Shown in pieces: positions 10,508-46,572 of a stretch of DNA of 64,000 bases. The stretch lies in the IMG/VR virus record IMGVR_UViG_3300045971_000356, positions 102,303-166,302 of that record; one strand, given 5' to 3'. The DNA is from a virus. Within the stretch, counting starts at the first letter, position 1. The number at the start of each line of letters is the position of its first letter. Position numbers and translations under genes: made by a program. The notes below the pieces were generated by a model. The model worked only from the letters and a program-made list of their open reading frames with translations. It had not been told where the DNA came from and did no database searches.

Positions 10508-11261
10508 TCCGATTTAAATGATTGACTGTCATTACCTTTCGGTCGGATAGTCTACTACACAATAATTTGGCTGGGACGTTGGTTTTCTTATTGTTAACCC
10601 AACGATTGAACTCCATAAGTCTCATCACCTTTTTATCTATTAGTCTAGAAACATAAGTGATGTGCTTAGTTACACAGGCAAGTTTAGCGGATTTTGATTG
10701 AAGCTTTTTAGTTTCTGTTGATCTTTTACTACCATAATTTATACCCACATAGTTAGAAAGAGTTGGGTCATCTTTATGAATTCTAAAACAAATACCTGTT
10801 TTATTATCCTTTACTGTAATCCAATTCTTTTGACTATTTGATATATTTTTCTTGTGAGATTCACTAATGCATTTTCCAGTTTGGAAAGATACTAACTCTC
10901 CAGAAATATAACGAGGATCATTAACAGATACCCTAAACATAACACCAGTAGAATCTTTTACTACAACTAGATTTTTATTTGTGGGAGGATTTCCACCAAA
11001 AGATTTATTTAGTAATAATGGATGTCCCCAATGTTCTTTAATAAGATTTTGTTCAAAGTCGTTTGCATCTTGTGATTCATAAAATACCGCTAAAATTTCA
11101 TAATTATAATTGTCAAAATTTGGTTTTACAATTTTAGATGATGTCTTGTAAACAATTCCCAAATCAAATTCTGCTGGTACTTTATTTGCTTTCCTAAAAC
11201 CAAAATAAAATTCCGATGTTGTTTTATGAGTACACTTGTATACGTAGGGATAAATATTCAT
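10452..11261 (-). CDS. GIY-YIG/Seg-like homing endonuclease splitting the RNA ligase
   Basis: YPYVYKCTH...FYFGFR..Y.TSS N-terminus; basic C-terminal repeats; antisense. Confidence 0.75.
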   Translation of the reverse strand: MNIYPYVYKCTHKTTSEFYFGFRKANKVPAEFDLGIVYKTSSKIVKPNFDNYNYEILAVFYESQDANDFEQNLIKEHWGHPLLLNKSFGGNPPTNKNLVVVKDSTGVMFRVSVNDPRYISGELVSFQTGKCISESHKKNISNSQKNWITVKDNKTGICFRIHKDDPTLSNYVGINYGSKRSTETKKLQSKSAKLACVTKHITYVSRLIDKKVMRLMEFNRWVNNKKTNVPAKLLCSRLSDRKVMTVNHLNRTRQSYLQLAHHQKKMAKT

Positions 11262-11315
11262 GCTGGCATTCCTTTCAATGTTAGAGTTCATGGGTGTTCC
11301 ACCACCGCGATGAAC
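11260..11315 (-). ncRNA. Candidate structured leader of the HEG, copy 1
   Basis: GTTCAT-CGC-GGTG-loop-CACC-C-ATGAAC-TCTAA-hairpin-CCAGCA; same architecture as 46450-46515. Confidence 0.6.
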
Positions 11316-11322
11316 ATTTTTA

Positions 11323-11351
11323 TTGACACATATTAAACAATGTGTTATAAT
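11323..11351 (+). promoter_or_regulatory. Sigma70 promoter for the ligase C-terminal half
   Basis: TTGACA-N17-TATAAT. Confidence 0.8.
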
Positions 11352-11384
11352 ATATTTATCATATTTAATGGAAGTTTGGAAATT

Positions 11385-11942
11385 ATGATTGAAATTATTT
11401 CAAAAGATCAATTAGCAACATTACACATTGGTGACAAATTCATATATCGAGGAGCTGAGTATGTTGCTCAGTCGGAACCATACGAAAAGAATGGTCAAAT
11501 TGGTGTAGATGTAGATACAGACAATACGTTCTGGAAGATGGCACTTGAACTTGGTTTGAGGGAAAAGTTGACTAATGAAGGGTTAAACATTGCTATTCAA
11601 GGTGAACTATGTGGCCCTGGTATTCAAGGTAACATTTATAACTTGAGCAAGCACATGTTCTTTGTGTTTGATATTTTTGATATTGATCGTTTTGAATATA
11701 TTGTACCAAAATTGCGTAGAGATATCACTAAGGCTTTTGGGTTAACTGATGCACCTGTGCTTGAATGTGAAGCAACATTGTCTGGTCAAACATGCGCGTC
11801 ACTGCTAAATAAGGCAGATGGGCACTCTGTGCTTGGGCTAATTGGGTGTGCTCGTGAAGGTCTTGTCTTCAAGGCAAATTCTGACAGGCGAATTTCATTC
11901 AAAGCAGTTAGCAACAAATATTTAGAAAATATCAAAGATTAA
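11385..11942 (+). CDS. RNA ligase (DRB0094-like), C-terminal half
   Basis: NTFW, IQGELCGPGIQGN, FVFDI, REGLVFK, SFKAVSNKYL (motifs III-V). Confidence 0.88.
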   Translation: MIEIISKDQLATLHIGDKFIYRGAEYVAQSEPYEKNGQIGVDVDTDNTFWKMALELGLREKLTNEGLNIAIQGELCGPGIQGNIYNLSKHMFFVFDIFDIDRFEYIVPKLRRDITKAFGLTDAPVLECEATLSGQTCASLLNKADGHSVLGLIGCAREGLVFKANSDRRISFKAVSNKYLENIKD

Positions 11943-12227
11943 ATTAAGGAAATTAAATGAAAGAAAAATTTGTTAAACTTGTGATAATATGCGCTGTCGC
12001 CAGCGTCGGTGTTATTTTAGCTGACTTAGTATTGGTACTGAGTAGGGTATGAGTCTATTAGACTGGTTTTCAACGTACCGGCCGTTTGAGATGCCACTGG
12101 TTCCGCCAATGGCGGAACGATCTATGGTATATTATATACCACCTCCCAATACAACTTATACAACCATAGTATCAAAATATAAACCATTTTACTACTGTTC
12201 GAAGCCGTCTGTTAAACGGTGGAAACG

Positions 12228-12440
12228 ATGAAACAATATAATGATGACGATGAAAAATTGCTAAGGACCGCAGTAAAGGCATTCATAATGTTTGCTTTTG
12301 TAGTTCTTTTTGCTATAATGTCAGTATGGATCATTGTGTTTGCTTTTGCTGTAAAAACAAGTGAGACCATTGAAAAAGACGGGTTAAAAGCCGTAGTTGA
12401 ATCAGTTTGGTGTGGTAAAAATAAACAGTGCCTTAAATAA
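12228..12440 (+). CDS. Small membrane protein
   Basis: One hydrophobic segment. Confidence 0.55.
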   Translation: MKQYNDDDEKLLRTAVKAFIMFAFVVLFAIMSVWIIVFAFAVKTSETIEKDGLKAVVESVWCGKNKQCLK

Positions 12441-13276
12441 TGAAAAATCTTGTCCCATTTGAAGAAGTTGATGAATTAGAAAAGCTATTAGCCGATGCCG
12501 CCGCTCTGGACGAAGTCGAAACACCATCTTTGGTTTTATCTAAAGGCGGGTTCCTTACTTTTCATAATTGGGTATACGATGAAGCAGTAGGAAAAGGTGA
12601 GTATGTTGACGTTGATATAACTAACGACTGGCTACATAAGCGCGATAAAGACATTGTACTTGCTCCTGGTGTTACGCTCAATGACGTATTTTTATTCGTC
12701 TCTCGAGACGCAGAAATTTGGGACATTATCCTTACTAACTGCTATGTTAAAAAGTTTGTCGAGACTTGGAAAAAAATTGATCAAGCATCAATTAAATTTA
12801 CACACGAGTACGATCCAGAAGCAATCGAATACTTAGAAGTTTATTGGGCGCCAGATTTGTTTACGTGGGCAGGCAAAACTAAAATTTCAGGTGTATCACG
12901 TGCTGACTTGCATGGCAAAGGATTTGTGCTGCAAGATGACAAATACGAAGACGAAGAAAAAACTTACAAACTTTACTCCAAAGGCACCCGGATTCAATGG
13001 GGTGTTGATTTTACACCACTGATAGATTTGCTTGGCTTGCCTATTCAACTTGACACACAATTTAAAATCCAGCAAGAATGGCAAAAATACATGAAGCTGG
13101 ATGAAATTGCAACACTGCTTGATGCACATCGTGATTATAGTTTGCAAGAAGTGCTTGAAGGTATCTTTTGGGAACTAAGTTTTTACGGTGGTGAAGTTGA
13201 AAAACTTGAAAAACGCGATGAAGTGATGGCGATTAAAGATTCTATTGATTTTAAAAATTTAAGTATTGAGCCATGA
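12440..13276 (+). CDS. Hypothetical protein
   Basis: 278 aa ORF with TAATG coupling. Confidence 0.8.
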   Translation: MKNLVPFEEVDELEKLLADAAALDEVETPSLVLSKGGFLTFHNWVYDEAVGKGEYVDVDITNDWLHKRDKDIVLAPGVTLNDVFLFVSRDAEIWDIILTNCYVKKFVETWKKIDQASIKFTHEYDPEAIEYLEVYWAPDLFTWAGKTKISGVSRADLHGKGFVLQDDKYEDEEKTYKLYSKGTRIQWGVDFTPLIDLLGLPIQLDTQFKIQQEWQKYMKLDEIATLLDAHRDYSLQEVLEGIFWELSFYGGEVEKLEKRDEVMAIKDSIDFKNLSIEP

Positions 13277-13755
13277 AAGTTGGATTACGCCTTGGTAAAT
13301 GTGTTCTTGACATTGTCAAGGGTGACGTGTTAATTACAGACGTTCTTGTAATTGTCGCTAATTCACGGATAAATCCAAAAAATGATGAACAGTGGGCCAA
13401 GGTTTGGAACGTTTACAAAAATGAATCTAAAATTTGGGACGTTGGGATTCACGAAGAAGTTTTCAAGTACACTTTGCGCAGATTATTTGAACTTGGTAAA
13501 CTGCATCAGCCAAAAACGTATGGTGGCAGAACTCATTCTTTTAAAGAACCTTGGGTTGATATAGTCCCAACTCTTAGAGATACAGCAATTCCAGAAAATT
13601 TCAATATTCCAGGAAAACCGACGCCGAAACCGCTACCTAAATTAGGGTCAACAAGGCCTGCCACTCTTGCGGCAGAACAGCCAACGACAATGGCACCCAC
13701 AGTAATAGCATCGTTTCCAGAAATTGCAACAATAATGCCTGACATTATCTTGTGA
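13273..13755 (+). CDS. Hypothetical phage protein
   Basis: ATGA overlap; GKLHQP motif. Confidence 0.75.
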   Translation: MKVGLRLGKCVLDIVKGDVLITDVLVIVANSRINPKNDEQWAKVWNVYKNESKIWDVGIHEEVFKYTLRRLFELGKLHQPKTYGGRTHSFKEPWVDIVPTLRDTAIPENFNIPGKPTPKPLPKLGSTRPATLAAEQPTTMAPTVIASFPEIATIMPDIIL

Positions 13756-13818
13756 TTGTTACACAATAACAACATAAAAATACTTGACTTTTGGTCCAAA
13801 TGCCGTTATAATAGCAGC

Positions 13819-14169
13819 ATGAAGACAAAAATGTTAGCACTTTCAGCAATTATTGTACTGTCCGGTTGCGCCACAAAGCAACGTATGGACATTAAAATGC
13901 TGGAGAGATTGCCAGTCGATTGCGACCAAGCAGCAGCAGCACAACGATTTTTTGAACATCATTTGACGACGTCAGATGAGCGGATAACTGCCGTTTTTGA
14001 CCGTAACTGGTACAATGCAGCATTTAGTCCTGAAAAATTGAGTCAGGGTAATCAAATACTCTCAAGGGAATACGATGCAGTGGCAAGAAATAAACTCGAT
14101 CAATTGCGCAACTGCCCAAGCGCATTGCCATACAATAATCCAGAACATCAATATTTGAAATCGCAATGA
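13819..14169 (+). CDS. Lipoprotein
   Basis: Lipobox LSGC; start 6 nt after TATAAT (13807-13812). Confidence 0.75.
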   Translation: MKTKMLALSAIIVLSGCATKQRMDIKMLERLPVDCDQAAAAQRFFEHHLTTSDERITAVFDRNWYNAAFSPEKLSQGNQILSREYDAVARNKLDQLRNCPSALPYNNPEHQYLKSQ

Positions 14170-14774
14170 AACTCTTTACATTAACTGCGATGGCAATGTT
14201 GGTTGGGTGCTCAAGCACACCTCCGGTGGTACATCGCCCAGTCGTAGAACGTGAACAAGTTTGCACTATGCGCTCTACTGCGCACACACAAATAACACAA
14301 ACTCTTGAAGATGTGGCAGACATTCGTCCCATGATAACAAGCGTTGGTAACAATGCATATAAATGCTCGATAACTGCTCGTGTACAATATAAGCAGGCGT
14401 GGTATAATGTGTACGGTGAAAACACAGATTCGTTGTCAGTATCACAAAATGATGTATGTCTTGCCGCCGTTAAAGATGCAATGGTTACATTTTTAGCAGG
14501 CAAAGAATCAACCACAGTCACAGCAGAGCAGCAGATGGTGTGTACTGATGAACCCGCTATTAAAACTCGCCCAGTTGAAAAGGGTGAGAGGATTAGGATT
14601 AGTGAAGTTAAGCCGCATCCTGCAAAACCAACCTCGTTCCCATACAATGGAACTGAGTGCAAGATGTTTATTGAGCAAGGCGTTCGTAATAGCATGCTTT
14701 ACGAATGGCAGGGTGTTGCATGTAAAACAGGTAGGAACGGTGGCGATGAATGGACCGTCCTTGATAAATTTTAA
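14166..14774 (+). CDS. Lipoprotein
   Basis: Lipobox LVGC; several Cys. Confidence 0.8.
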   Translation: MKLFTLTAMAMLVGCSSTPPVVHRPVVEREQVCTMRSTAHTQITQTLEDVADIRPMITSVGNNAYKCSITARVQYKQAWYNVYGENTDSLSVSQNDVCLAAVKDAMVTFLAGKESTTVTAEQQMVCTDEPAIKTRPVEKGERIRISEVKPHPAKPTSFPYNGTECKMFIEQGVRNSMLYEWQGVACKTGRNGGDEWTVLDKF

Positions 14775-14797
14775 CTTAAGAAAGTGTAGGCAGTAAA

Positions 14798-15307
14798 ATG
14801 AAACGCAGTATGACAGCCCTTGTGGCAGTAACTTTGATGGTAATCGCAGGCTGCTCGTCAGCCCCTAAAGCACCTGAACCAGTAATGGCAGCACCCAAAA
14901 CGGTGATGTCAAACGTGCCTGATTGGTACGTCACGGTGCCCCCAGCACCTGCTGGCTATGTATTTGCAGCCGGAACAGCAGTAAGCCGCGATTTGTCCAT
15001 GAGCAAGGCAAAAGCACATTTGGACGCTGAAATTCAGCTTGCCAACAGGATTGCTGCGGAGGTAAGTACGATGATGAAAGATTATCGTCGTGACGCAGGC
15101 GATGATTTTGCCCAAGTAACTGAAATGGTTACAAATAAGGTGGCTTCCCGTGTTAAACTTGCTGCCAAAACGGACAAGACTATTATTATTTCCGAAGGCG
15201 GCGGGTTTCGCACGTATGTTTTGCTGCTTTCGTCAGATTTGAACGTAGCTGCACTACAGGCAGATAAGAATGCCGCAGAACGCGAGCTAGCAATGCGTAC
15301 GAACTAG
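14798..15307 (+). CDS. LPP20-like lipoprotein
   Basis: Lipobox IAGC; VPDWY...AAGTAVS.DLSMS..KA. Confidence 0.75.
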   Translation: MKRSMTALVAVTLMVIAGCSSAPKAPEPVMAAPKTVMSNVPDWYVTVPPAPAGYVFAAGTAVSRDLSMSKAKAHLDAEIQLANRIAAEVSTMMKDYRRDAGDDFAQVTEMVTNKVASRVKLAAKTDKTIIISEGGGFRTYVLLLSSDLNVAALQADKNAAERELAMRTN

Positions 15308-15324
15308 CATCCAGCCAAAATGAC

Positions 15325-15350
15325 AGAAAAGGGGCGAAAGCCCCTTTTCT
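15325..15350. terminator. Bidirectional intrinsic terminator
   Basis: AGAAAAGGGG-CGAAAG-CCCCTTTTCT. Confidence 0.8.
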
Positions 15351-15377
15351 TACGAGCTCGTATTCATAAATAAGTTG

Positions 15378-15851
15378 GTGCATGACAAAGAAACGCTAGT
15401 TAAACTGCTAAATACTCCGCTGCCAAGTAAACGGGTTCAACGCCGTGCCAATTATCGCCCAACAAAAGAGCAAATGGGGCTGATTTACGATATACTCAAT
15501 GATGTACTATTTGAGGGTAAACTCAAAAAACCCACGATTTACATGCGATCAATGAAATTTTGGGGGCTATGCTCTGTATACGATGCACCAAAAATCTTCT
15601 CCATTATTAGAATTAATAACGAATGTTTTTGCTTACATTGGTTTATCCTAATTTTAGCGCACGAAATGGTGCATCAGCATCAATGGGAGATAGATGGCCC
15701 AGAGATTACAAAGGCTGGCGGTGAAATAATGGTTGATCATAATGAGTCCTTTTTTAAGTTCACTGATAAGTTTATCGAGAATGGGCTTTCGTTAAAAGAA
15801 GCATACAGTAAACACGAGTGGATAAAGCACCAAGATCTTACTAAATTATAA
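15378..15851 (+). CDS. SprT-like zinc metalloprotease
   Basis: LAHEMVH (HExxH) plus downstream H..F; late promoter upstream; start codon uncertain. Confidence 0.75.
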   Translation: MHDKETLVKLLNTPLPSKRVQRRANYRPTKEQMGLIYDILNDVLFEGKLKKPTIYMRSMKFWGLCSVYDAPKIFSIIRINNECFCLHWFILILAHEMVHQHQWEIDGPEITKAGGEIMVDHNESFFKFTDKFIENGLSLKEAYSKHEWIKHQDLTKL

Positions 15852-15892
15852 AGAAAACTGTGCAGCATAAATACTATAACAGGATTTTGAAA

Positions 15893-16261
15893 ATGCCAAA
15901 CGACACTTCATTTATACGAGAACTGATCAATTTCATTGATCAACGGCTAGCTGCCCAAGAGCAAACTACTGCGGTTGGGAGTAACCCGGAAGACCAAAGT
16001 ACCGACGTTGGCAATGCTAACCAATCTGGCGTGAACCCAATGGATCGCGACGATATTTTTGTCCCACCGTTGCAAGCTAAGTTAGAAATCATGAAGAAGC
16101 TGTCTGGCATCCCGCTTAAAGATGAAACGTTAAAACAATCACAAGAACAAGGCGGGCCAACACTCAGTGATGAGCAAGTCGTCGCGCCGTCTCAAGCACA
16201 AGAGCTTAAAAAACATCTAACTATAGCAGATTTGTTCGGTAACGATGTAACAGGGGAATAG
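15893..16261 (+). CDS. Hypothetical late protein
   Basis: ATAAATA upstream; FVPPLQAKLE motif. Confidence 0.65.
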   Translation: MPNDTSFIRELINFIDQRLAAQEQTTAVGSNPEDQSTDVGNANQSGVNPMDRDDIFVPPLQAKLEIMKKLSGIPLKDETLKQSQEQGGPTLSDEQVVAPSQAQELKKHLTIADLFGNDVTGE

Positions 16262-16262
16262 C

Positions 16263-16994
16263 ATGGCGGGTGAAGGCTTTAACAACCCGAATACTACACA
16301 CGAGATTTTTAGTAGTCGTGTAAAAGTCCCAGCTACTGAATATGTTGGCCAGCAAGGTCGCTTATTTTATCACGAAGATACAGGTGAGTTGCGTATTAGT
16401 GACGGTGTAACACCACATGGTCACCCAATCTTCACACAAACTACATCCACTGGCAGCGTAACGCTATCATTATATGCTTCCAATGGAACACCAGCCAACA
16501 CTCCAATGGCAGTGGGAAATAACTCAACTGCGATGGGTGACGGTGCTATATCGTATGCTACTGGTAGTGTAACCCAATCGTCAGGCATATTTACTTCATA
16601 CGGTGATGCGCAAACTGGTAGTTATGTTTTTAGAACAGTCACAGTCAATAACTCATGGATGGAGATGTTTTTAGATGGCGTAACACAGAGGCTGATTATT
16701 CCAGCAAATGCGACGGTATCGTTTACTGCTAAAATCATTGCTCGTAGAACAGATTCAGGTAATGAAGGCGGAATTTACGAGATTAAAGGTGGAGTTGATA
16801 AAGGGCAATTCAACTCAAGCATTGCTCTTATTGGTAAAATCAACAAAACAGTAGTTTCAGAAGACAATCCAATCTGGGATGTCAATATAGATGTAGACAC
16901 TACGACCGGAGCACTTCGAATCTGGGTTAAAGGTGAGAACGGCAAAACAATACGCTGGGTCGCACATTTAGAAACAGTCGAAGTTCGTGACTAA
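16263..16994 (+). CDS. Virion/tail-associated protein
   Basis: N-terminal GRLFY..LRISDGVTP.G; C-terminal domain paralogous to the tip of 34540..37626. Confidence 0.7.
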   Translation: MAGEGFNNPNTTHEIFSSRVKVPATEYVGQQGRLFYHEDTGELRISDGVTPHGHPIFTQTTSTGSVTLSLYASNGTPANTPMAVGNNSTAMGDGAISYATGSVTQSSGIFTSYGDAQTGSYVFRTVTVNNSWMEMFLDGVTQRLIIPANATVSFTAKIIARRTDSGNEGGIYEIKGGVDKGQFNSSIALIGKINKTVVSEDNPIWDVNIDVDTTTGALRIWVKGENGKTIRWVAHLETVEVRD

Positions 16995-17012
16995 ACCGCA
17001 CTATTTAAGTTT

Positions 17013-17039
17013 AAAGCCCTGGAATCGCAGGGCTTTTTC
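17013..17039 (+). terminator. Intrinsic terminator
   Basis: AAAGCCCTG-loop-CAGGGCTTTTT. Confidence 0.75.
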
Positions 17040-17079
17040 ATGATTATCTATATGTAAAGCGTTCACGATAAATAAGAAC

Positions 17080-19269
17080 ATGAGAGTAAAACACTTTATC
17101 GCAGAACAGCAATTAGACGAGTTGGCAATGAACCCAACCTCCCTCCGCAGTGTCGCCGCAAAAATAGATGCCCGCGTTGGCATGGAGTTTGAAATGTATG
17201 TGCCCGACACAAATGGCGGAGAAGGCGATAGTGATTACGATGAATGGGAACCAGATTACGAAATGGATGAGTCAGTGTCTGATTTTGCCGACATTATAGC
17301 ATTCTTTAACAGCGGTGAATTTGCGGGCTCTTCTGGCCGTGCTTTAGGATTGTTTAAAGAGAAAATGGAGGAAGAATTTTTCGAATGGGTAGAAGAACAA
17401 ATACACGATAGTTGGCGCAAAGAAGGTCGTGATGCTATACGCGACTACATGGTAAACAACGATCTGTGGGACGAGGACGAGGCAATCACACTTGCGTTTG
17501 AGGAAATGGATCTCACAGACGACGAGAAAAATCGTGCTGAAAAAGTTGGAGCCCAGTTAAATGCCCGGAAATATAATCGCGTAAAAGGTGAAGTAAGTTA
17601 TCGCGGTGATGATGAAAAAAATTGGGATGAAGCAGCCAAAAGAGCAGAAGATGCGTTTGAAGAACGGGTTGGTGAAGAGTGGCAAGGGGAAGGTGAAATA
17701 TCCGACGCTGCTTTTGAAGAATACCAAAGTGAGGAACGCGAGAACTATTCAGAGCAAGATTTTTTGCGTGACAAAGGAATAAGAACAGCACTTAACGCTT
17801 TTGAAGAATTTGAACCGCGTGATGTCAACTGGCCACACATGGTCAATGTTGGCGGTGGCGGAAATGGGTCGCAGAGCGCAGATGATGTGGCACGAGATTT
17901 TGAAGAAATGATAGGTCGCCCAGTAATGTCAAGCGATAACTATCATGGAGTAAAGCGTAACGGTGTATCATACATTGTGGAGCCAGACTCAAGTTTAGAT
18001 GAGGCTAATAGCGGCGAGGATGCTGGGTTAGAGTTTGTATCCCCACCACTGCCTGTCAATGACATGCTGTCCGATTTAAAGAAAGTTAAAACATGGTGTG
18101 ACGATAAGGGATGCTACACTAACAGCAGCACTGGGTTACATATAAACATTAGTGTGCCAGGGATGGATGAAGAAGGTAAGTTAGATTATGTGAAGTTAGC
18201 ATTGCTCATGGGTGACAAGCATGTCATTGACCAGTTTGGTAGAGCAGGTAACACTTACGCAAAGTCCGCAATGGACATGATTAAAACTGCGGTTAGAACT
18301 CGCCCTGAGTCCGCCGCAGCAATGCTTGACAAAATGAAGGGCGGACTTGACAAGTTAGCAAGTAAAATAATTCACACCGGTAAAACAGAAAAATACACCA
18401 GCATCAACAACAAAGGAAACTACATAGAGTTTCGTAGTCCAGGCGATGACTGGCTTGGGAAATATTACAATCAGATTGAACCCACAGTGTTGCGTTTAGT
18501 TGTGGCGCTGGACGCAGCATGCGATCCAGAAAAATCTCGCCAAGAGTATCTTAAAAAGTTATACACTTTGCTAACACCATCGTCAAGCGCAGATCCACTC
18601 GCATATTTCGCACAGTATGCGGCAGGGGAGATTCCTAAGGCTGCGTTACGCTCGTTCATCAAACAGGTTCAGTTGACACGAAAAACTAAGCGTGAAGATG
18701 AAAAATTTGGCCCAGTGACAACTTGGACTGTCACTGACAATGTTTATGGGTATGTCAAGGGGGTCAAAGCACGGTCAGCAGCAGAGGCAATATCTGCTAC
18801 TAAACTTCTTTTAGGTGGAGATAGTGTGAATGCTCCGGATAGTCAGTTTACTGCGGTACAAAAAACACCGCAGCAAGCACCAGTGGACAATCTTGAAGGT
18901 AGGCCGTGGGCAAGATGGCGTATAAATGCTACTGCTGGCCGCACTATCCCAGTTTCTGCCAGGTCACATGCTGAGGCTATTCAACGGTGCGGTATACCAG
19001 AAGAACAAATAGTCAGTGTTGTCATTGACGATGGAAATTTAAGACCACCGCAGCAGGAACCTCAACGTAGAGAAGAGACCGACTTTGGCGAAGATGTTCC
19101 ATGGGAAATATACGATAGAGCATCAGGTGAGCGAAGATTTGTATCGTTTATGTCACAAGCAAATAATGGTCAGTTGGCGGCAGCAAACGCAGTAGCAATG
19201 TTAAACAACATAGCCACACCTGATGATCAGCGTCGTGGATTAGGTGTGCGTATGGTAGGTGGTGTGTAA
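17080..19269 (+). CDS. Putative amidoligase (COOH-NH2 ligase type 2) with capsid-targeting-like N-terminus
   Basis: GMEFE, EPDSSL, GLEFVSP, STGLHINI, KY.SIN, IEFRSPG; starts MRVKHFIAE. Confidence 0.8.
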   Translation: MRVKHFIAEQQLDELAMNPTSLRSVAAKIDARVGMEFEMYVPDTNGGEGDSDYDEWEPDYEMDESVSDFADIIAFFNSGEFAGSSGRALGLFKEKMEEEFFEWVEEQIHDSWRKEGRDAIRDYMVNNDLWDEDEAITLAFEEMDLTDDEKNRAEKVGAQLNARKYNRVKGEVSYRGDDEKNWDEAAKRAEDAFEERVGEEWQGEGEISDAAFEEYQSEERENYSEQDFLRDKGIRTALNAFEEFEPRDVNWPHMVNVGGGGNGSQSADDVARDFEEMIGRPVMSSDNYHGVKRNGVSYIVEPDSSLDEANSGEDAGLEFVSPPLPVNDMLSDLKKVKTWCDDKGCYTNSSTGLHINISVPGMDEEGKLDYVKLALLMGDKHVIDQFGRAGNTYAKSAMDMIKTAVRTRPESAAAMLDKMKGGLDKLASKIIHTGKTEKYTSINNKGNYIEFRSPGDDWLGKYYNQIEPTVLRLVVALDAACDPEKSRQEYLKKLYTLLTPSSSADPLAYFAQYAAGEIPKAALRSFIKQVQLTRKTKREDEKFGPVTTWTVTDNVYGYVKGVKARSAAEAISATKLLLGGDSVNAPDSQFTAVQKTPQQAPVDNLEGRPWARWRINATAGRTIPVSARSHAEAIQRCGIPEEQIVSVVIDDGNLRPPQQEPQRREETDFGEDVPWEIYDRASGERRFVSFMSQANNGQLAAANAVAMLNNIATPDDQRRGLGVRMVGGV

Positions 19270-20630: not shown

Positions 20631-20783
20631 CTAATCAAAATAATACCCCAATTAAAAGACGAAGGTTATATAAAGAGCAATCTGAAAATTCTGTTCTAAA
20701 AAATAATGCTTCGATCGAAAATCAATTGTCGCAAACAGTTATAATAATGCGTCAAATGCATGCTCTTGTTACGAAGTTAGAAC

Positions 20784-24096: not shown

Positions 24097-24097
24097 T

Positions 24098-33460: not shown

Positions 33461-33547
33461 AAGTAACACGTCGCGAAAGCGCAACAATGGGGCATTCGTG
33501 CCCCATTTCTATTGTTAAATATCAAATAGTAGTATATAATAGCTAAC

Positions 33548-34402: not shown

Positions 34403-34539
34403 TTACTATTCTCCACTAAGATAACACGGGCTGTTTACTCAGCCCGTGCCTTTGAGTGCGGACAGATAAATAATGTTATATCAATGCGGAAGTAACAGTT
34501 ACTTCACTTGACACTTATTTTAACATAACGGAGCATAAC

Positions 34540-37626: not shown

Positions 37627-37633
37627 GTTTAAA

Positions 37634-37795
37634 ATGGATTACAATAAACATTATACATTATTAATTGACAGAGCAAGACCCCGTATTAAAATAGATGGTG
37701 AAAAATATGAACTACATCATATTTTACCACGGTGTCTTGGCGGGGGCAATAGAAAAATAAATTGTCTAATTGTGAGACCAAATAATGGATTTTAA
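37634..37795 (+). pseudogene. Truncated HNH homing endonuclease
   Basis: MDYNKHY..LI.RA...ELHHILPRCLGG.N, then ends; similar to the N-terminus of 59932. Confidence 0.7.
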
Positions 37796-38972: not shown

Positions 38973-38973
38973 C

Positions 38974-39711: not shown

Positions 39712-39719
39712 ATATCATT

Positions 39720-40802
39720 ATGACTACAGAAATACTTGGATCAATTACATACGCAGAAACTCCCACAGTTAATGGAACTGCGGTGCTACTCAATGGCAGT
39801 AACCCAACTTCTGCAAATATTACCTTTGGTAATGTTGACGCATCTGGTACATTAACCGCAGTAAACCTGTCAGGAACAAATACTGGTGATCAAGTTATTC
39901 CGACCACATTGCCGGCGTCAGATGTATTTGCTTGGGCCAAAGCAGCAACAAAACCAACTTATACTTACACTGAAGTTGGTGCGCAAGTAGCAGGAAGTTA
40001 TTCAGCGGCAGTTCACGCCCATGCGACCACAGATATTACTGGGTTTGCCGCTGCGGCATTAGCGGCTGCGCCAGCAGAAACTACTGTTACTATTAAGACT
40101 GCGTTGGGTATTACTACACTAAGTGGTTCGAATACAGGTGACCAAACAATTACATTAACTGGCGATGTCACTGGATCAGGCACTGGCAGTTTTGCTGCTA
40201 CTTTATCAAATATCGGAACTGCTGGTACTTATACAACAGTAACTACAGATGCAACTGGTCGCGTTACGGGTGGATCAGCGACACAATCATGGTCAACAAT
40301 TACTGCTACACCAACAACACTGGCTGGCTATGGAATCACTGACGGTGGTGGCGGAACTGCATCAGTGTTACAGACATTAGTTACAGCAGTTCCGGCAGCA
40401 TCAGGAACATCAACTATTACGTTAAACAATAGTACGCCAACAATTACCAGTGGTACTCAACTATGGTCTCAAGTGATTACCCCGTCATTGGTATCAAGCA
40501 AAGTTGCATTGCGCGGAACATTTATTGTTTCTCACGCTACTGCGGCAAGAACTGTGGTAGCGATGGTGTTTAGGGGGTCAACTTGTATTTCAGTGGTAGC
40601 ACAATACTGTGGTACCACAGCAAATACAATTAATACATTGCCAATTTCAATTGTTGATTCTCCAGCAGCGACAACAGCTCAAACATATTCAATCCGTATT
40701 GCAGGATCAGGCACTGGCACTTGGTATGTTGGGCAAACAGGGACACCATATTTCGCAGGGCTATTAGCAACGAGCGATATTTTAACACAGGAATTAGCAT
40801 AA
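39720..40802 (+). CDS. Tail fibre protein
   Basis: SGTNTGDQ, KPTYT..EVGA, PTTLAGYGITD; ATAAATA just upstream. Confidence 0.8.
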   Translation: MTTEILGSITYAETPTVNGTAVLLNGSNPTSANITFGNVDASGTLTAVNLSGTNTGDQVIPTTLPASDVFAWAKAATKPTYTYTEVGAQVAGSYSAAVHAHATTDITGFAAAALAAAPAETTVTIKTALGITTLSGSNTGDQTITLTGDVTGSGTGSFAATLSNIGTAGTYTTVTTDATGRVTGGSATQSWSTITATPTTLAGYGITDGGGGTASVLQTLVTAVPAASGTSTITLNNSTPTITSGTQLWSQVITPSLVSSKVALRGTFIVSHATAARTVVAMVFRGSTCISVVAQYCGTTANTINTLPISIVDSPAATTAQTYSIRIAGSGTGTWYVGQTGTPYFAGLLATSDILTQELA

Positions 40803-40803
40803 A

Positions 40804-41259
40804 ATGGCATACACCTACATTCAAGCGATAGGGTTGGGTTTTCCAGGAGTTGAGTGCCACGCACTTGGTGATGGATCAGTTTACGCAGACATTGTCTGGG
40901 ACGCAGGCGTCGCAATGCCGTCACAAGCAACATTAGATTCTTGGATTGCCGCAAATCCAGAAACAGTTTCAGTTAAAATTACGGTATTAGCATTGCGAAA
41001 TCGCTTTACTCAAACTGAAAAAGTAACATTAGAGATGGCAGCATTAGACAATCCGGCAGCCACATCACAGCAACGTCAGTTAGCTGCCGGTATTCGAGTA
41101 ATGATGGCAGACTTAAATGTGGCAACATTCGTTGATGTAACTCGACCAGACACGATCGCAGGAATTCATTCGTTAGAAACGTATGGTCTCATTGCTGCTG
41201 GCCGTGCTGCACAAATTCTATCAACAGATACTCTTCTCATTGAACAATATAAGGAATAA
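40804..41259 (+). CDS. Tail-fibre-associated protein
   Basis: Paralog of 41505 and 32123. Confidence 0.7.
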   Translation: MAYTYIQAIGLGFPGVECHALGDGSVYADIVWDAGVAMPSQATLDSWIAANPETVSVKITVLALRNRFTQTEKVTLEMAALDNPAATSQQRQLAAGIRVMMADLNVATFVDVTRPDTIAGIHSLETYGLIAAGRAAQILSTDTLLIEQYKE

Positions 41260-41263
41260 TATC

Positions 41264-41482
41264 ATGGCAACATCAATTAAAACAAAAAAATTAGTTTACG
41301 AAGCAACAAAAGTTTCAGTAAAACAAAGTGATGTGGTGCAAACTGCTGCATTGGGCGCAGTTACGGTTGAAAGCATTCACGCAGCAAGAAAGAAATCAGG
41401 GCACGGTAGTATAACACTTAAATTGCCAGACGGTCGTTTATGTGATTATTCTCCAGCCGTAATAAATGCCATTTGGCAATAA
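41264..41482 (+). CDS. Hypothetical protein
   Basis: AAGGA RBS before MATSIK. Confidence 0.6.
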   Translation: MATSIKTKKLVYEATKVSVKQSDVVQTAALGAVTVESIHAARKKSGHGSITLKLPDGRLCDYSPAVINAIWQ

Positions 41483-41504
41483 ATAAGTGTAAAGGATAGT
41501 AACA

Positions 41505-41933
41505 ATGGCAATTTCATATTTAGACGCAATACGTCAAGGATTCCCGACAGTAATGGCAGTGTCGCTTGGCGACCCGTTTATCTACTCAAACATAGATTGG
41601 ACTGGTGGCGATGCTATTCCGTCACAAGATGATTTAGATTTGTGGATCAGTCAGAATCCAGGTTGGAATCCAACTATGGAACTTACTAAGTATCAATTTA
41701 GGCAACTGTTCACGTTGAACGAAAAAGTTGCGATCGATAACTTCAAAGATAATCCAGGTATTCCAGCGAATTACAAAGCAATTTTAGTGTCAGTGATGAA
41801 GGATTTAGAGTTATCTGAGGTTGTTCACTTGGATAATCCACAAGTCGCACAAGGTATTGCGCTATTAGAACAATTGGGATTGCTCGCGGCCGGTAGGGGC
41901 ACACAGATAATGTCTAACACTGCACCAGTATAG
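41505..41933 (+). CDS. Tail-fibre-associated protein
   Basis: Paralog of 40804. Confidence 0.7.
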   Translation: MAISYLDAIRQGFPTVMAVSLGDPFIYSNIDWTGGDAIPSQDDLDLWISQNPGWNPTMELTKYQFRQLFTLNEKVAIDNFKDNPGIPANYKAILVSVMKDLELSEVVHLDNPQVAQGIALLEQLGLLAAGRGTQIMSNTAPV

Positions 41934-41956
41934 GTTTTATTAAAGGAGAGACCACT

Positions 41957-42649
41957 ATGATTTCTAAATTAGTAACAGCTTGGTTATGGTCAAAGGTCGT
42001 GGCCAAGGCAAAAACAGAAGCAGGAATGCAACTGTTTTACAAGTTTATAGATTGGGGTACGGTTGCCATTGGCAACGTATCATGGAAATCAAAACGTGTG
42101 ATGACTGATGCTGATCGTGATGTGTTGCGGCAAAAGCTGGAAAAAGACTACTACATTATTTTAACAATGCATCGTGGGTTTCTGTCATCGTGGGCAATAG
42201 CGATAGCGCATTTCTTTATGACATGGAAGTTTGGCTATTATGCACACGTTTTGATGAACTTAGAAGACACAGTGTCAACTGATGCTGATTATAAATTTAT
42301 TGAAGCAACGAGACTTGGCACTCAGTATTCAGGATTTGACCACGTGTTCAATCAGCAAACAAGTTCAGTAGCATTGCTAAGACCAAAATATATGACATTA
42401 GATCATTGGACTGAAGTTTTGGATCGCTCACGCACTTATTTGGGTCGTCCATACGATACGTTATTTGATTTGTCGAGTGACCAGAAGTTGAGTTGTGTTG
42501 AATTAGTACGTGACGCATTACGTGGTGAACCACACTACGAGCGTGACTTTGCTAACTTCGAAGCGATGATTACTAAATCGAAAAACTTAGACCCACAAAT
42601 GTTTTATGAGTGCACAGACTTTGTAGTTGAGTGGGAAGTAAGGCACTAA
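41957..42649 (+). CDS. Permuted papain-like NlpC/P60 (YiiX/YebB-like) enzyme
   Basis: YAHV...IEA...LGRPYD..F...SCVELV (His before Cys). Confidence 0.8.
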   Translation: MISKLVTAWLWSKVVAKAKTEAGMQLFYKFIDWGTVAIGNVSWKSKRVMTDADRDVLRQKLEKDYYIILTMHRGFLSSWAIAIAHFFMTWKFGYYAHVLMNLEDTVSTDADYKFIEATRLGTQYSGFDHVFNQQTSSVALLRPKYMTLDHWTEVLDRSRTYLGRPYDTLFDLSSDQKLSCVELVRDALRGEPHYERDFANFEAMITKSKNLDPQMFYECTDFVVEWEVRH

Positions 42650-42700
42650 ATTTAGTCATTTACGTTTGACTTAACATGCCTTGTTTTACTATAATCAGGC

Positions 42701-43075
42701 ATGTCTTTATATAACTACGCATCACCACAGCAGCACCAAACGGCTTACCCGCCACAGCCTGGGCCAAATCCCCCAGCCAGTGGGTTAACATCTGGCACGA
42801 TCATAGCAGCAAACACTGGGCCTTATACGATTGCAAACTCAGGAGTACAAACTGGGTTAAATATAACAGGCAGCATATCATCATCATCAACTGTACACGC
42901 ATCTGATGTTTTACTTGACGGAGTTAGCGTTAAGGAATCACTGGCAACACTGGCTAAGATAAACGAGCGTTTAGCGATTTTGGTACCTGACCCTTCCAAA
43001 CTTGAAAAATTTGCAGCACTCAAAGCGGCGTATGCTGACTATTTGCTACTTGAAAAATTGTGTACTGACGCATGA
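42701..43075 (+). CDS. Hypothetical phage protein
   Basis: Leaderless start after a promoter; INERLAIL.P motif. Confidence 0.7.
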   Translation: MSLYNYASPQQHQTAYPPQPGPNPPASGLTSGTIIAANTGPYTIANSGVQTGLNITGSISSSSTVHASDVLLDGVSVKESLATLAKINERLAILVPDPSKLEKFAALKAAYADYLLLEKLCTDA

Positions 43076-43458
43076 ACTTCATGTACAAAGAACGGCTTAA
43101 AGGGTTGTGTGACAAGTACAAGATCAAAATACTTGACGACAATAGGCGAACGCCAGTGTTGCTCGCAAACGAATATTTTGTTGAGCCAACAGATAAAAAC
43201 ATAGCGACAACTGTGAGAGTCGTAGATACAGAGCCGCTTGTGACGCTTGAAATCCCACTAAGCAAGTTTAACTTACTTGCTGCCGTTGAGGCAAAGTTTT
43301 TCAACAACGAATACGATATCGGGCATCGCAAAGTGTTTGAAAACATGATGGACATACATCAAGAGGAAAAGGTATTACGCGAGCAGTATCCCGCAGTGGC
43401 AGATGCGTATTCAGCCTACAGCACATTGTTACATTTGTGTAAAATTCAGTCAAAATAG
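43072..43458 (+). CDS. Hypothetical protein
   Basis: ATGA overlap. Confidence 0.7.
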   Translation: MNFMYKERLKGLCDKYKIKILDDNRRTPVLLANEYFVEPTDKNIATTVRVVDTEPLVTLEIPLSKFNLLAAVEAKFFNNEYDIGHRKVFENMMDIHQEEKVLREQYPAVADAYSAYSTLLHLCKIQSK

Positions 43459-43503
43459 AGCCATTTCTTTAGGTAATCTTCACTTTTTGTGCTATTATAG
43501 CGT

Positions 43504-44016
43504 ATGATTAAACTAAAACCTATCGCATACTTACTCGTGGGAGTGCCTGGCTCTGGCAAATCCACTTGGGCTGACCCATACTTGACGAAAGATGGATTTC
43601 AGTTAGTGTCCACTGACGCTTACATTGAAAACACTGCTACAATGCTTGGCAAAACTTACGGAGAAATCTTCAAGGCTACCATTGGCGAAGCAACCAAAAT
43701 AATGGAAGACAGCATCAACAAATTCATGGCTGCGTCACAAAACATGGTGTGGGATCAAACCAACTTGAGCATGAAGTCGCGACGTGAAAAGTTGAACAAG
43801 TTACTTGACGCTGGGTACGATGTAACTGCGGTTGCGTTTGAAATCCCAACCACAGAGTTGGAAAATCGTCGCAAGTCTCGTGAGTTGGCAACTGGTAAGC
43901 ACATTCCCGCAAACATCTGCGAAAGCATGGGGAAGACTTATCAACGCCCAACACGGTTAGAAGGATTCAAGCGTGTTATTATTGTGACACCTGATGGAGA
44001 AATTGAAGGGGGTTAA
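43504..44016 (+). CDS. P-loop polynucleotide-kinase-like protein (AAA_33)
   Basis: GVPGSGKST, STD, WDQTN, P...EGF. Confidence 0.85.
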   Translation: MIKLKPIAYLLVGVPGSGKSTWADPYLTKDGFQLVSTDAYIENTATMLGKTYGEIFKATIGEATKIMEDSINKFMAASQNMVWDQTNLSMKSRREKLNKLLDAGYDVTAVAFEIPTTELENRRKSRELATGKHIPANICESMGKTYQRPTRLEGFKRVIIVTPDGEIEGG

Positions 44017-44017
44017 C

Positions 44018-44149
44018 ATGAAAGAGTACGATGAAGATGACCCAATCAACCCAGGGCGTGGTTTAGCGAATGGGTTGATTTTAAGTGCCATTGTGTGGGG
44101 CATTGTGTGGGGCATTGTGTATGGCATCTACTATGTTTTCTCGCGTTAA
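44018..44149 (+). CDS. Small membrane peptide (43 aa) with a 12-bp repeat
   Basis: IVWGIVWGIVYG encoded by tandem GGCATTGTGTGG. Confidence 0.55.
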   Translation: MKEYDEDDPINPGRGLANGLILSAIVWGIVWGIVYGIYYVFSR

Positions 44150-44189
44150 ATATGCTCTGTTAAAAATTCTCGGGATTCAGCATAAATAT

Positions 44190-44576
44190 ATGATGAGTCC
44201 CGTACCAGCTTACATTGAAAAAAACGACACAGATCACAAAGAGATATTAGATCACTTTGCAACATTACCTGCTGGTGAAGTACAGCAACTTGCATGGTTG
44301 TACACGAGCATGGACTTGCTTGTTGAACACTTCTCGTATGAAGAGCAATGGATGACAAGCGTTGGCTACCCTGGTTTTGAACTGCACCAACAAGTACACA
44401 AGGAATATTTACGGTTGCTGATGAACATCATCACTGACACCTCAAAACACCCAGAGAACATTACTGACAGCATCACAATGTTCACCAGAGCAATCAAAAC
44501 GCACAAAGAAGCAGAAACCATGTCGCTTCATTTGTACTATACGGACACCGTTCCAGCGCCTTTAGGCTTGACATAG
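44190..44576 (+). CDS. Hemerythrin-domain protein
   Basis: DH, HFSYEE, HQQVH, HKEAE; ATAAATA upstream. Confidence 0.8.
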   Translation: MMSPVPAYIEKNDTDHKEILDHFATLPAGEVQQLAWLYTSMDLLVEHFSYEEQWMTSVGYPGFELHQQVHKEYLRLLMNIITDTSKHPENITDSITMFTRAIKTHKEAETMSLHLYYTDTVPAPLGLT

Positions 44577-44616
44577 CGTTTATTTTGTGTTATACTGTGA
44601 ATACCACAGTAAAAAC

Positions 44617-45069
44617 ATGAATAACATGAAAAAAATCATTATCATGGACATTGATGGCACTATCGCCAACATTACGCATCGTCGCGCCTATGTGCAACTG
44701 CGTCCAAAGAACTGGCCAGCGTTTAACCGCGCCATGGTTAAGGACACGATTTATCCAGATATTCTGTGGATGTACAACGTGCTAAAAAACCAGGAAGACA
44801 CGCTAATGTTTATCGCATCAGGCCGTGGCGAGGAAAACCGTGACGTTACTGAAAAGTGGCTGGCTGACAACGGTATTGAATACATGAATCTGTTTATGCG
44901 CCCAGCAAAAGATCATCGCCAGGACAACATCATCAAGTTTGAAATCCTGGAACAAATCCGCAGGGAATACGGTGAGCCGTTCATGGTGTTTGACGATAGA
45001 GATCAAGTTGTTAACATGTGGCGTGAGAACGGTGTTCGCTGCATGCAAGTTTCCCCAGGCGATTTTTAG
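44617..45069 (+). CDS. HAD polynucleotide 3'-phosphatase (PseT C-domain-like)
   Basis: DIDGT, SGR, LFMR, FDDR..VV.MWR. Confidence 0.88.
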   Translation: MNNMKKIIIMDIDGTIANITHRRAYVQLRPKNWPAFNRAMVKDTIYPDILWMYNVLKNQEDTLMFIASGRGEENRDVTEKWLADNGIEYMNLFMRPAKDHRQDNIIKFEILEQIRREYGEPFMVFDDRDQVVNMWRENGVRCMQVSPGDF

Positions 45070-45070
45070 T

Positions 45071-45361
45071 ATGGCCAAAGTAACGCATGACCTTGACGAG
45101 CGGTTAGCCCCGCTTGTTGAGGAGTGCACCCCTCTCCGCATTGTGATTACAAGCAAGGTGGCTGGTGATAAATATTACCTGCACTTTGACGGTACAAAGT
45201 CATATGACGATGTAGAAAAGTGGGACGATTATTGGATCAGTTTTGAATATTATATCTTACAGACTTTACACAAGCACAGTATAGTGGACAGAAAAGTGAT
45301 TGCACGTGGCAAAGGCACACTGGTAGTTTTTATTGGAACTTTGTTTGACTTTTTGAAATAA
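45071..45361 (+). CDS. Hypothetical protein
   Basis: ATG directly after the upstream stop. Confidence 0.6.
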   Translation: MAKVTHDLDERLAPLVEECTPLRIVITSKVAGDKYYLHFDGTKSYDDVEKWDDYWISFEYYILQTLHKHSIVDRKVIARGKGTLVVFIGTLFDFLK

Positions 45362-45402
45362 GTACACTATAATGGACAAGAAGCAACGTGCAACTCAAAT
45401 AA

Positions 45403-45792
45403 ATGATAATAAACGAAATAATAGATAAGGTATTTGCCAGACGATCTCTATTAGAAGATGCGTTTGTGACGGAAATGGCTAACTTTATAGCTGATGTAAC
45501 GGACTTGCCTGGTAATATTGTTATTTGGACCAAAACACAACCTGAAATGTTGCCACACGACAAATACAGGATGAAAATTTATAAGGATAGAATTCATTGC
45601 GCTACATACAGCATAGGTCAAACACCATCGTTGGCATGGGAAATTGGAAGAACTAAATTTAGGCTTGACGCATATGAAATTGGCGAAGTTAAGAAACTAA
45701 TCCAAGAATATTCAAGTTTATTCATTCAATATGTTGACGCAAAACTAACAGCAGACGAAGTAAAAATTGAAATCCAAAAATTGAAAAGATAA
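45403..45792 (+). CDS. Hypothetical protein, possible capsid-targeting tag
   Basis: MIINEII...LLE..VTEMAN. Confidence 0.6.
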   Translation: MIINEIIDKVFARRSLLEDAFVTEMANFIADVTDLPGNIVIWTKTQPEMLPHDKYRMKIYKDRIHCATYSIGQTPSLAWEIGRTKFRLDAYEIGEVKKLIQEYSSLFIQYVDAKLTADEVKIEIQKLKR

Positions 45793-45794
45793 TA

Positions 45795-45896
45795 ATGAAA
45801 TACCAATTTCCACATATCCACAATTTGGATCAAGTTTTACCTGTTGTTAAAGACCGGCCAGAATTCATCGTGTCTGAAAAGGACGGGCGCCACTAA
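45795..45896 (+). pseudogene. Relic original N-terminus of the Rnl1-like ligase
   Basis: 16/31 aa identical without gaps to the N-terminus at 46573. Confidence 0.85.
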
Positions 45897-46459
45897 TGTT
45901 GCCGCAATCTTGCATTTCGCTCACGTAAAGATGCCGCAATTTTTCCCCGTGTTTCAGCAGATACTGTATGCCCCATTTTTGATGCTGATATTTGAGCCTT
46001 CTTTTCTTCAGAATGTCTACATAATCTTACTTTAGCAGAAATGCCAGCCCTAACTTCAGCAGATCTATTTGCCCCTGCACGTGACTTCTTTGCGCGGGTC
46101 TCATCTGAAATAGGTGGTCTATTTTTAGCAGACTTAGACATTTTGATTCTTGTTTCTTCAGATATACCAGTTGCTCCTTCTCCTCCGTCAGTTCTGTTTG
46201 CGAGAATTCCAGTGTGTAAATCTTTTCGACCATGCCATTGAATCATTCTTCGCTCTATTGCAAATGCCCCAAGTTCAGTTAACCCAGTCTCAAGTATTAT
46301 GATCAATGATTTGTCTAACGGGATAGGAAAATATTTATGAGTTGTTATTGCTCTATTACCAGAACCCTTACCAATGTAATATGGAGTTCCTGCTTTGGCA
46401 GTTTTGGAATCTTTGTCACGCAAGTATGCGTAGACGTAATAAGTATTATTGCTGGACAT
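45893..46459 (-). CDS. GIY-YIG homing endonuclease with NUMOD3 repeats
   Basis: YYVYAYLR...PYYIGKG..R; NRTDGGEG; SEETR.KMS. Confidence 0.85.
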
Positions 46460-46515
46460 AAAAGCCTTTCGTCAGGTTGTTTAGAGTAGTTGGAACCGCC
46501 AAGTTCGCGAACTAC
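46450..46515 (-). ncRNA. Candidate structured leader of the HEG, copy 2
   Basis: TATAAATA then GTAGTT-CGC-GAAC-loop-GTTC-C-AACTAC-TCTAA-hairpin-CCAGCA. Confidence 0.6.
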
Positions 46516-46572
46516 ACTAATATTTATACAAATTTATTGACTCCACGACATTTATCGTATATAATTCTAACT

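Follow-up and report, generated by a model that had tools for sequence, protein, structure and literature searches.

The selfish elements met most often in large phages are homing endonuclease genes, whose control has been described only gene by gene, for hairpins in a few T-even phages. A 64,000-nucleotide stretch of viral DNA (positions 102,303 to 166,302 of the 166-kb IMG/VR record IMGVR_UViG_3300045971_000356; hereafter the window) carries two GIY-YIG-type homing endonuclease genes on its minus strand, each headed by the same structured cassette. What is this cassette, which of its strands is under selection and what could it do for the genes behind it? An earlier note on this DNA had proposed a conserved, covarying leader on both genes, and both copies were confirmed at their places on the minus strand. 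The best reading, to which we assign a probability of about 0.5, is that the cassette encodes a cis-antisense RNA of ~60-70 nts with a loop complementary to the Shine-Dalgarno (SD) sequence, which would restrain translation of the nuclease as RNA-OUT does in IS10.

The cassette is ~85 bases long. On the strand of the nuclease gene it consists, in order, of a (T/A/C)TAAATA box, a spacer of 5 nts (sometimes 3-4), the hairpin P1, the linker UCUAA, the hairpin P2, the motif YCAGC, a start codon of sliding position and the motif TA(T/C)TTA. P1 is built from 6 bp, a C-R-C facing a Y, another 4-5 bp and a loop of 4-8 nts; the sense P2 has 3-4 bp, with the SD sequence mostly in the loop. Further copies were collected from IMG/VR with two patterns, a 16-base skeleton and a pattern fixing the flanks only (box, CTAA, CAGC, box), each of which returned at least 120 matches. 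The skeleton gave 124 matches in 124 loci (120 are IMG/VR contigs among the matches listed; three lie in the window's record), and the flank pattern gave 175 distinct leaders among the matches listed, 111 of them outside the first pattern. Each of the two samples fixes some columns by construction, and only columns free in the relevant set were used. Within the window the skeleton occurs twice, against 0.26 expected. Across its 124 matches the unconstrained P1 stem positions are paired at 8/8, with 7/8 in three of them. On the sense strand, P1 is paired in 99.7% of cells with double changes at every unconstrained pair, and covariation is 0.429 against 0.130 after shuffling (0/500). The feature noticed in two copies is real, exceeds chance and is stronger than first described.

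The internal loop of P1 hides a covarying R:Y pair, seen as CGC/C (G-C) in 144 cases, CAC/T (A-U) in 9 and CAC/C (A.C) in 19, T never occurring with G. P1 thus forms a single helix that carries two single-C bulges, both always on the same arm relative to the gene. The earlier description of a CGC bulge and a single C missed the pair within. The variable hairpin said to carry GAAAGG is present in both copies as an SD mini-hairpin, but GAAAGG (or AAGGAG) is just the SD sequence. A pseudoknot between a TGG in the P1 loop and the distal CCA, also suggested, does not survive the comparison. TGG occurs in only about half of the family in the set ascertained independently of the loop, the loops CGCCAA, TTGCCG and CGGCAA lack it, CAG never varies and there is no covariation; the apparent constancy of TGG came from the first pattern. 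In their terminal loops, P1 hairpins show two classes that are reverse complements of each other, TTNNNS and SNNNAA, with 8 reciprocal pairs such as TTGGCG (32) and CGCCAA (6). These classes imply repeated small inversions of the P1 loop, the bulged lower helix never inverting. The loops of the window copies themselves read TTGGCG and GTGGAA.

Rfam 15, searched on both strands, gave no match at the gathering score in the 64-kb window and none at E<=1 in five cassette loci, and no Rfam ribozyme model (hammerhead, twister, pistol, hatchet and others) matched the window or these loci. A literature search found no described nuclease-associated RNA motif. Among cultured phages, 50,697 phage records searched by blastn with a consensus leader yielded no match, nor did megablast of the copy-1 locus. 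A covariance model built in this analysis found nothing significant in T4, KVP40, Aeh1, Aeromonas phage 25 and S-PM2 (best E 0.098 and 0.23, at unrelated sites). The same model found 6 copies in the 166-kb record, all on the minus strand, with 49-83 bits (70.1 bits for copy 2 of the window). Some 225 environmental contigs were gathered, the great majority with the cassette, and most have different metagenome identifiers. These results support an undescribed, covarying structured element without Rfam match that is tied to homing endonuclease genes. The earlier note's suggestion of an undescribed nuclease-associated RNA stands as regards the missing Rfam match, the link to hundreds of nuclease genes and the covariation, but has to be amended as regards the strand, as the selected fold appears to lie opposite the gene.

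Of the large carrier contigs, 5/5 code for a capsid protein of the Gp23 type (E 1e-80 to 1e-98) and 5/5 for a segment resembling the late sigma factor gp55 (E 5e-8 to 7e-6); judged by these markers, the carriers of the cassette, uncultured giant phages, are T4-like. Two of these contigs, of 361 kb and 328 kb, are complete genomes and hold 13 and 4 copies. Phage placement by tblastn of the DNA ligase (~31% identity to SPO1-like phages) was uninformative. Domains recognized among 96 downstream proteins were NUMOD3 (22), HNH (10), HNH_3 (8), HNH_5 (7), SegE_GIY-YIG (6) and GIY-YIG (5). Because GIY-YIG, SegE, NUMOD3 and HNH proteins are all headed by the cassette, it serves unrelated nuclease families. 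A small ribozyme or a nuclease cofactor had also been considered for this locus. Neither has anything in its favour, and the nucleases behind the cassette are protein-only enzymes of at least two unrelated families.

The strand that carries the fold can be read from the mismatches that are tolerated. Among the non-Watson-Crick cells of the lower P1 stem, counted together with the R:Y pair, 44 are A.C on the sense strand (G.U on the antisense strand), found in at least 19 distinct stems, and none is a true sense G.U; three apparent cases proved to be parsing offsets. Tallied over the whole structure in the antisense orientation, there are 2461 Watson-Crick, 318 G.U and 27 A.C cells. In addition, the conserved linkers of the sense strand pair with each other on the antisense strand, where 5'-CUGR faces UUAG-3' (C-G, U-A, an invariant G.U, and A-U 117 / G.U 33) and the next pair is U.G in 74, U-A in 40, C-G in 33 and C.A in 1. 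This pairing of UCUAA with YCAGC extends P2 to a helix of 8-9 bp, P2'. The CTAA..CAGC segment forms 8.2 bp at -5.7 kcal/mol on the antisense strand versus 4.5 bp at -2.5 kcal/mol on the sense strand, and the whole overlap folds at -16.7 versus -12.7 kcal/mol, the antisense fold being the better one in 150/175. Over 150 distinct sequences, 97.6% of cells of the antisense structure are paired, with double changes at 15/19 pairs. Its covariation is 0.557 against 0.203 shuffled (0/500), all 11 pairs of P1', the antisense form of P1, covary, and slid controls of the structure are all <=41% paired. Wobbles specific to the antisense strand show the same frequency next to a co-directional upstream phage gene (n=56) as next to one on the opposite strand (n=109), so the antisense fold looks intrinsic to the nuclease cassette. 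The skew of the wobble pairs and the pairing between UCUAA and CAGC assign the selected RNA fold to the strand opposite the nuclease gene. They count against the mRNA-leader fold that had been taken for the selected structure. A DNA recognition end of the element, in double-stranded form, would have no need of G.U-compatible pairing and finds no support.

The flanks of the cassette are conserved as well. The motif TA.TTA is invariant in 99/99 leaders ascertained without it, although it is read as MxIY, MYL or MIF; being kept in all three reading frames, it reflects a constraint on nucleotides and not on protein. Some family members have TACTTA variants of this internal box. Read on the other strand, its TATTTA form gives the same TAAATA as the upstream box, and the spacers are mirrored, with box-N5-G(P1) in 67/98 and CAGC-N5-box in 77/98; the upstream box ends 3-5 nts before the first base of P1 in 90/98. 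The late promoter of T4 is TATAAATA, centred near -10 and ~5 nts before +1. Under this geometry, both boxes would start facing transcripts at the edges of the conserved core, ~56 nts apart. In the window's record, the density of ATAAATA on the coding strand is ~7-fold higher in intergenic than in genic DNA, and about half of the exact TATAAATA boxes stand at nuclease genes.

The position of P1 bears on a modified form of the earlier note's view, in which the sense 5' untranslated region (UTR) is the functional molecule, P1 guarding the 5' end of the late mRNA from decay or binding a phage regulator at its two bulged C, and P2 presenting or partly masking the SD sequence. P1 begins 5 nts after the box, where T4 late geometry places +1, and the 99.7% pairing on the sense strand and the fixed arm of the bulges relative to the gene would fit. 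Hairpins are known to control the translation of I-TevI, mobE and segB, and the seg43(25) hairpin lies just upstream of the ribosome binding site (RBS) (PMC2988022). We nonetheless regard a sense-strand function as improbable, because it leaves unexplained why A.C and C.A mismatches, G.U on the other strand, prevail (44 to 0; 318 to 27) and why UCUAA, CAGC and, in three frames, TATTTA are conserved, and because the sense P2 has only 3-4 bp and -2.5 kcal/mol.

In the two window copies, the parts of the cassette and the predicted antisense RNA lie as follows.

Copy 1, 11326-11321, minus strand: degenerate upstream box TCAATA, the nuclease gene's own box.
Copy 1, 11315-11286, minus strand: P1, in sense view GTTCAT CGC GGTG GTGGAA CACC C ATGAAC.
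Copy 1, minus strand: TCTAA (UCUAA) at 11285-11281, SD mini-hairpin P2 at 11280-11267 and CCAGC at 11266-11262.
Copy 1, 10452-11261, minus strand: GIY-YIG-type homing endonuclease gene starting MNIYPYVYK, ATG at 11261-11259.
Copy 1, 11251-11256, plus strand: TAAATA mirror box (minus strand: TATTTA) within codons 2-4 of the nuclease gene, 5 nts before G 11262.
Copy 1, 11262-11315, plus strand: predicted antisense RNA core from its minimum free energy (MFE) fold, with +1 at G 11262 and A 11285 between the hairpins.
Copy 1, 11263-11284, plus strand: P2' hairpin, 8 bp, loop CCUUUC as anti-SD.
Copy 1, 11286-11315, plus strand: P1' hairpin, 11 bp with two bulged G.
Copy 1, 11316-11330, plus strand: U-rich tail AUUUUUAUUGAC after P1', complementary to the degenerate box of the nuclease gene itself.
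Copy 1, 11323-11351, plus strand: sigma-70-type promoter TTGACA-17-TATAAT (12/12), facing the C-terminal half of an RNA ligase gene.
Copy 2, 46521-46528, minus strand: exact TATAAATA box 5 nts upstream of the first base of P1, predicted late-type promoter of the nuclease gene.
Copy 2, 46515-46486, minus strand: P1, in sense view GTAGTT CGC GAAC TTGGCG GTTC C AACTAC.
Copy 2, minus strand: TCTAA (UCUAA) at 46485-46481 and CCAGC at 46455-46451.
Copy 2, 45893-46459, minus strand: GIY-YIG-type homing endonuclease gene, ATG at 46459-46457.
Copy 2, 46440-46445, plus strand: mirror box TAAGTA (one mismatch to TAAATA) inside the nuclease gene, 5 nts before G 46451.
Copy 2, 46451-46515, plus strand: predicted antisense RNA core, with +1 at G 46451, A 46485 and P1' at 46486-46515.
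Copy 2, 46452-46484, plus strand: extended P2', part of the predicted antisense core.
Copy 2, 46537-46565, plus strand: sigma-70-type promoter TTGACT-17-TATAAT (11/12), facing a plus-strand gene that starts at ~46573.

The ATG of copy 1 directly follows CCAGC and that of copy 2 lies upstream of CAGC. On the plus strand, the MFE folds of copy 1 (-17.4 kcal/mol) and copy 2 (-17.2 kcal/mol) share one shape, namely one unpaired G, P2', one A, P1' and then a U-rich tail.

Read as an antisense repressor, the cassette would be two facing T4-type late-promoter boxes ~66 bp apart (box to box), enclosing ~56 nts transcribed on both strands. From the upstream box, transcription of the nuclease gene would begin with the first base of P1, and the mirror box in codons 2-4 would start the opposite-strand RNA at the G facing the last C of CAGC, 1 nt before P2'. 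The loop of P2' (8-9 bp) would show an anti-SD (CUCCUU/CCUUUC), the complement of the SD sequence of the nuclease gene. P1' (11 bp, two bulged G), which would stabilize the antisense RNA, and the U-rich tail would follow, the tail being the complement of the nuclease gene's own putative promoter box. Fully complementary to the nuclease 5' UTR, such an RNA would begin to pair loop-to-loop at the SD sequence, and the pairing would block ribosome binding or destabilize translation, keeping a potentially toxic nuclease low. As sense and antisense partners would always be complementary, flips of the P1 loop would do no harm. This reading would account for a box conserved regardless of frame, for spacers that mirror each other, for wobbles specific to one strand and for the conserved linkers, as well as for the near absence of sense G.U and the tolerance of loop flips.

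Among the closest known systems is IS10. Its 69-nt RNA-OUT, an opposite-strand transcript that shows multicopy inhibition, has complementarity to the translation-initiation region of the transposase (PMC5006887). Like the RNA-IN/RNA-OUT pair of IS10/Tn10, the cassette combines a nuclease-type gene of a mobile element with a predicted short structured RNA from the opposite strand, whose promoter would lie inside the 5' end of the gene. Like RNA-OUT, this RNA would be complementary to the translation-initiation region, and it may act in trans in a way that depends on copy number. On the antisense strand, a stable and selected fold complementary to the initiation region was found (97.6% paired, covariation at 15/19 pairs, G.U 318 versus A.C 27, an anti-SD loop). 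So were conserved facing TAAATA boxes with mirrored 5-nt spacers and a gp55-like sigma in the carriers, the boxes being predicted promoters. The cassette differs from IS10 in having no homology of sequence or fold, an overlap that spans the whole 5' UTR (~56 nts), two hairpins, T4-late-like boxes, lytic giant-phage hosts and an expression that is predicted only.

According to a 2010 review, no small regulatory RNA had been characterized in T4 (PMC3014915). In the T4-like cyanophage S-PM2, the antisense RNA CfrI over a homing endonuclease gene was seen experimentally, with a function given as unknown (Millard et al. 2010, as described in PMC2984593). Unlike the cassette, CfrI as portrayed in that account is ~225 nts long and links the nuclease gene to psbA; the best covariance-model hit in S-PM2 (E 0.098) is at an unrelated site.

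The cassette also shares with the hairpins of T-even homing endonuclease genes (I-TevI, I-TevII, I-TevIII, segB, Aeh1 mobE; PMC2988022, PMC3014915) a late promoter directly before the gene and RNA structure at the translation start, which in those genes presumably keeps the nuclease low or late. In the T-even type, however, a stable hairpin contains the promoter, so that the RBS is hidden in the longer, early transcripts only, and every gene has a hairpin of its own kind (PMC2988022, PMC3014915). In contrast, the hairpin of the cassette is wholly downstream of the box with the SD sequence mostly in a loop, belongs to one conserved family across nuclease types and has its fold selected on the other strand. 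As the earlier note had correctly observed in setting the element apart from the I-TevI RBS-occluding hairpin, P1 is not entered by the promoter: the box ends 3-5 nts before P1 in 90/98, which places P1 wholly in the late transcript. Nor is there a stable helix sequestering the SD sequence or AUG, the sense P2 having ~-2.5 kcal/mol and a clamp between the boxes ~-5 kcal/mol without covariation.

Several observations weigh against antisense repression of the nuclease. Pairing that tolerates G.T would fit a single-stranded DNA hairpin too. One mismatch each is found in the upstream box of copy 1 (TCAATA) and the mirror box of copy 2 (TAAGTA), and exact TATAAATA shows no genome-wide enrichment in the record. 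No gp55 or Gp23 match was found in the 166-kb record, a result that is uninformative, the record being a fragment ~47% complete. Among public sequencing runs, those listed with this DNA are pond and wetland DNA contigs, with no RNA run among them. The tail of P1' starts with AC, its U-run is interrupted and a simple terminator scan gives no call in either copy; P1' as a textbook terminator was dropped on this account. With a poor terminator of this kind, the antisense RNA may read on into the neighbouring gene. Finally, a solo copy without nuclease elsewhere in the record (G000:C1:35914-35985) has both hairpins, without the mirror box, between two plus-strand genes, so the fold can persist in phage-strand mRNA.

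These last points lead to an explanation in which the bottom-strand fold serves phage transcripts, as a terminator/promoter module resembling the PeSLs of T4-like phages that would offset the polarity of nuclease insertion and would not regulate the nuclease. Arriving with the nuclease gene, the cassette would bring a stem-loop, a promoter for restart (the mirror late box plus, in a subset, one of sigma-70 type) and a hairpin-capped leader, which between them would restore or insulate the expression of the phage gene downstream. The arrangement of genes fits this idea. In the record, 201/242 called genes lie on the plus strand and all 6 cassettes on the minus strand, and 66-70% of family loci have an upstream gene on the opposite strand. 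The solo copy directly precedes a plus-strand gene, and T4 seg/mob genes embed promoters for downstream phage genes (PMC2988022). The poor terminator at P1' would suit a transcript that continues. PeSLs are laid out as stem-loop, AT-rich stretch, -35/-10, SD sequence and start (PMC4122927) and, like the cassette, are small, repeated and portable (PMC2839356, PMC4122927). The bottom strand of the cassette has this layout in 23% of loci (44/194, both window copies included), with a sigma-70-type promoter of at least 10/12 right after P1' and its AT-rich tail, compared with 3-5% in controls.

However, the sigma-70 promoter is absent from 77% of loci, and where the bottom strand has no gene to serve (34% of loci), the mirror box and antisense fold show the same conservation. 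PeSL stems are simple and variable, without nuclease link, second hairpin, facing late boxes or fixed bulges, unlike an 11-bp helix with two fixed bulges followed by a second hairpin. Moreover, a terminator 56 nts past a promoter would defeat that promoter. On balance, we see service to phage transcripts as the main rival of antisense repression, possible but less probable. If it were true, mobile nuclease cassettes would bring a repair kit for the genes they interrupt. It is worth noting that it is compatible with antisense repression of the nuclease and does not exclude it. It may be added that many of the 41 minus-strand genes in the record are nuclease-sized (170-290 aa); together with the orientation of all six cassettes, this indicates that selfish nuclease genes are mostly inserted antisense to phage genes.

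Another explanation operates at the DNA level. The ~85-bp cassette, or a bottom-strand single-stranded DNA hairpin, could act as a site of recombination or template switching through which nuclease genes are moved from site to site and from phage to phage. Alternatively, read-through transcripts could be clamped by the two boxes, as for T4 gene e and I-TevI. One cassette heads unrelated nuclease families, the start codon slides in a fixed DNA frame, flips of the terminal loop are DNA-level events, PeSLs have been proposed as recombination points and the two boxes are paired in 65/98 read-through folds. Homology alone would nevertheless not maintain 15 covarying pairs and strand-specific wobbles. 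The clamp (promoter:TATTTAT) amounts to ~-5 kcal/mol of A-U pairs, without covariation and without advantage of own over cross pairing (-5.01 versus -4.88 +/- 0.17 kcal/mol), and was rejected as a candidate. We see little probability in a DNA-level module.

If the cassette does encode an antisense repressor, it would suggest a general rule for the coexistence of phages and their selfish nucleases, and would be a compact part of two promoters and two hairpins, testable in T4-type systems. The antisense RNAs could also act on one another's genes, the cassette being common to 4-13 genes per genome. In an extended and rather unlikely version, the 4-13 nuclease genes of a phage would emit mutually repressing antisense RNAs as a copy-number-sensing network, and the shared cassette would double as a recombination handle for swapping nuclease genes. 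There, the anti-SD loop and the shared P1, CAGC and UCUAA segments would allow repression in trans, a form of "multicopy inhibition" for homing endonucleases. Such a network, if true, would be a collective throttle letting giant phages tolerate many selfish nucleases.

A few features of the neighbourhood may be recorded. The solo copy, which is on the minus strand outside the window, is followed by a 9-codon stub; it keeps both hairpins intact but has no mirror TATTTA box. This copy takes up the 120-nt gap between two plus-strand genes and ends 3 nts before the next ATG. Also outside the window, at G000:C1:30227-30282, the start of another GIY-YIG gene (MSFIYIVTN) is bracketed by a facing pair of exact TATAAATA boxes, ~48 bp apart and with no P1 between them, in what looks like a stripped-down facing-box layout.

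In the window, an RNA-ligase-like gene is split into two plus-strand frames (9815-10507 and 11384-11942) by the antisense nuclease cassette gene of copy 1 (10452-11261, minus strand). EKCEGSS, a KxDG-like motif, lies in the first half and GELCGPGIQ in the second, which has a perfect sigma-70 promoter and a start codon of its own. A second ligase-like gene with the motif EKLDGSM (46573-47187 and 47829-48425, plus strand) is apparently split by the third nuclease gene of the window, a GIY-YIG gene at 47156-47806 on the minus strand. This gene is without cassette and shows no P1 or P2; an exact TATAAATA stands before it at 47829-47822. Lastly, the plus strand carries a predicted NAD salvage pair, a nicotinamide phosphoribosyltransferase at 3301-4743 and a NadM-like cytidylyltransferase/NUDIX protein at 5320-6336 (PHROG E 5e-143 and 6e-72, respectively).

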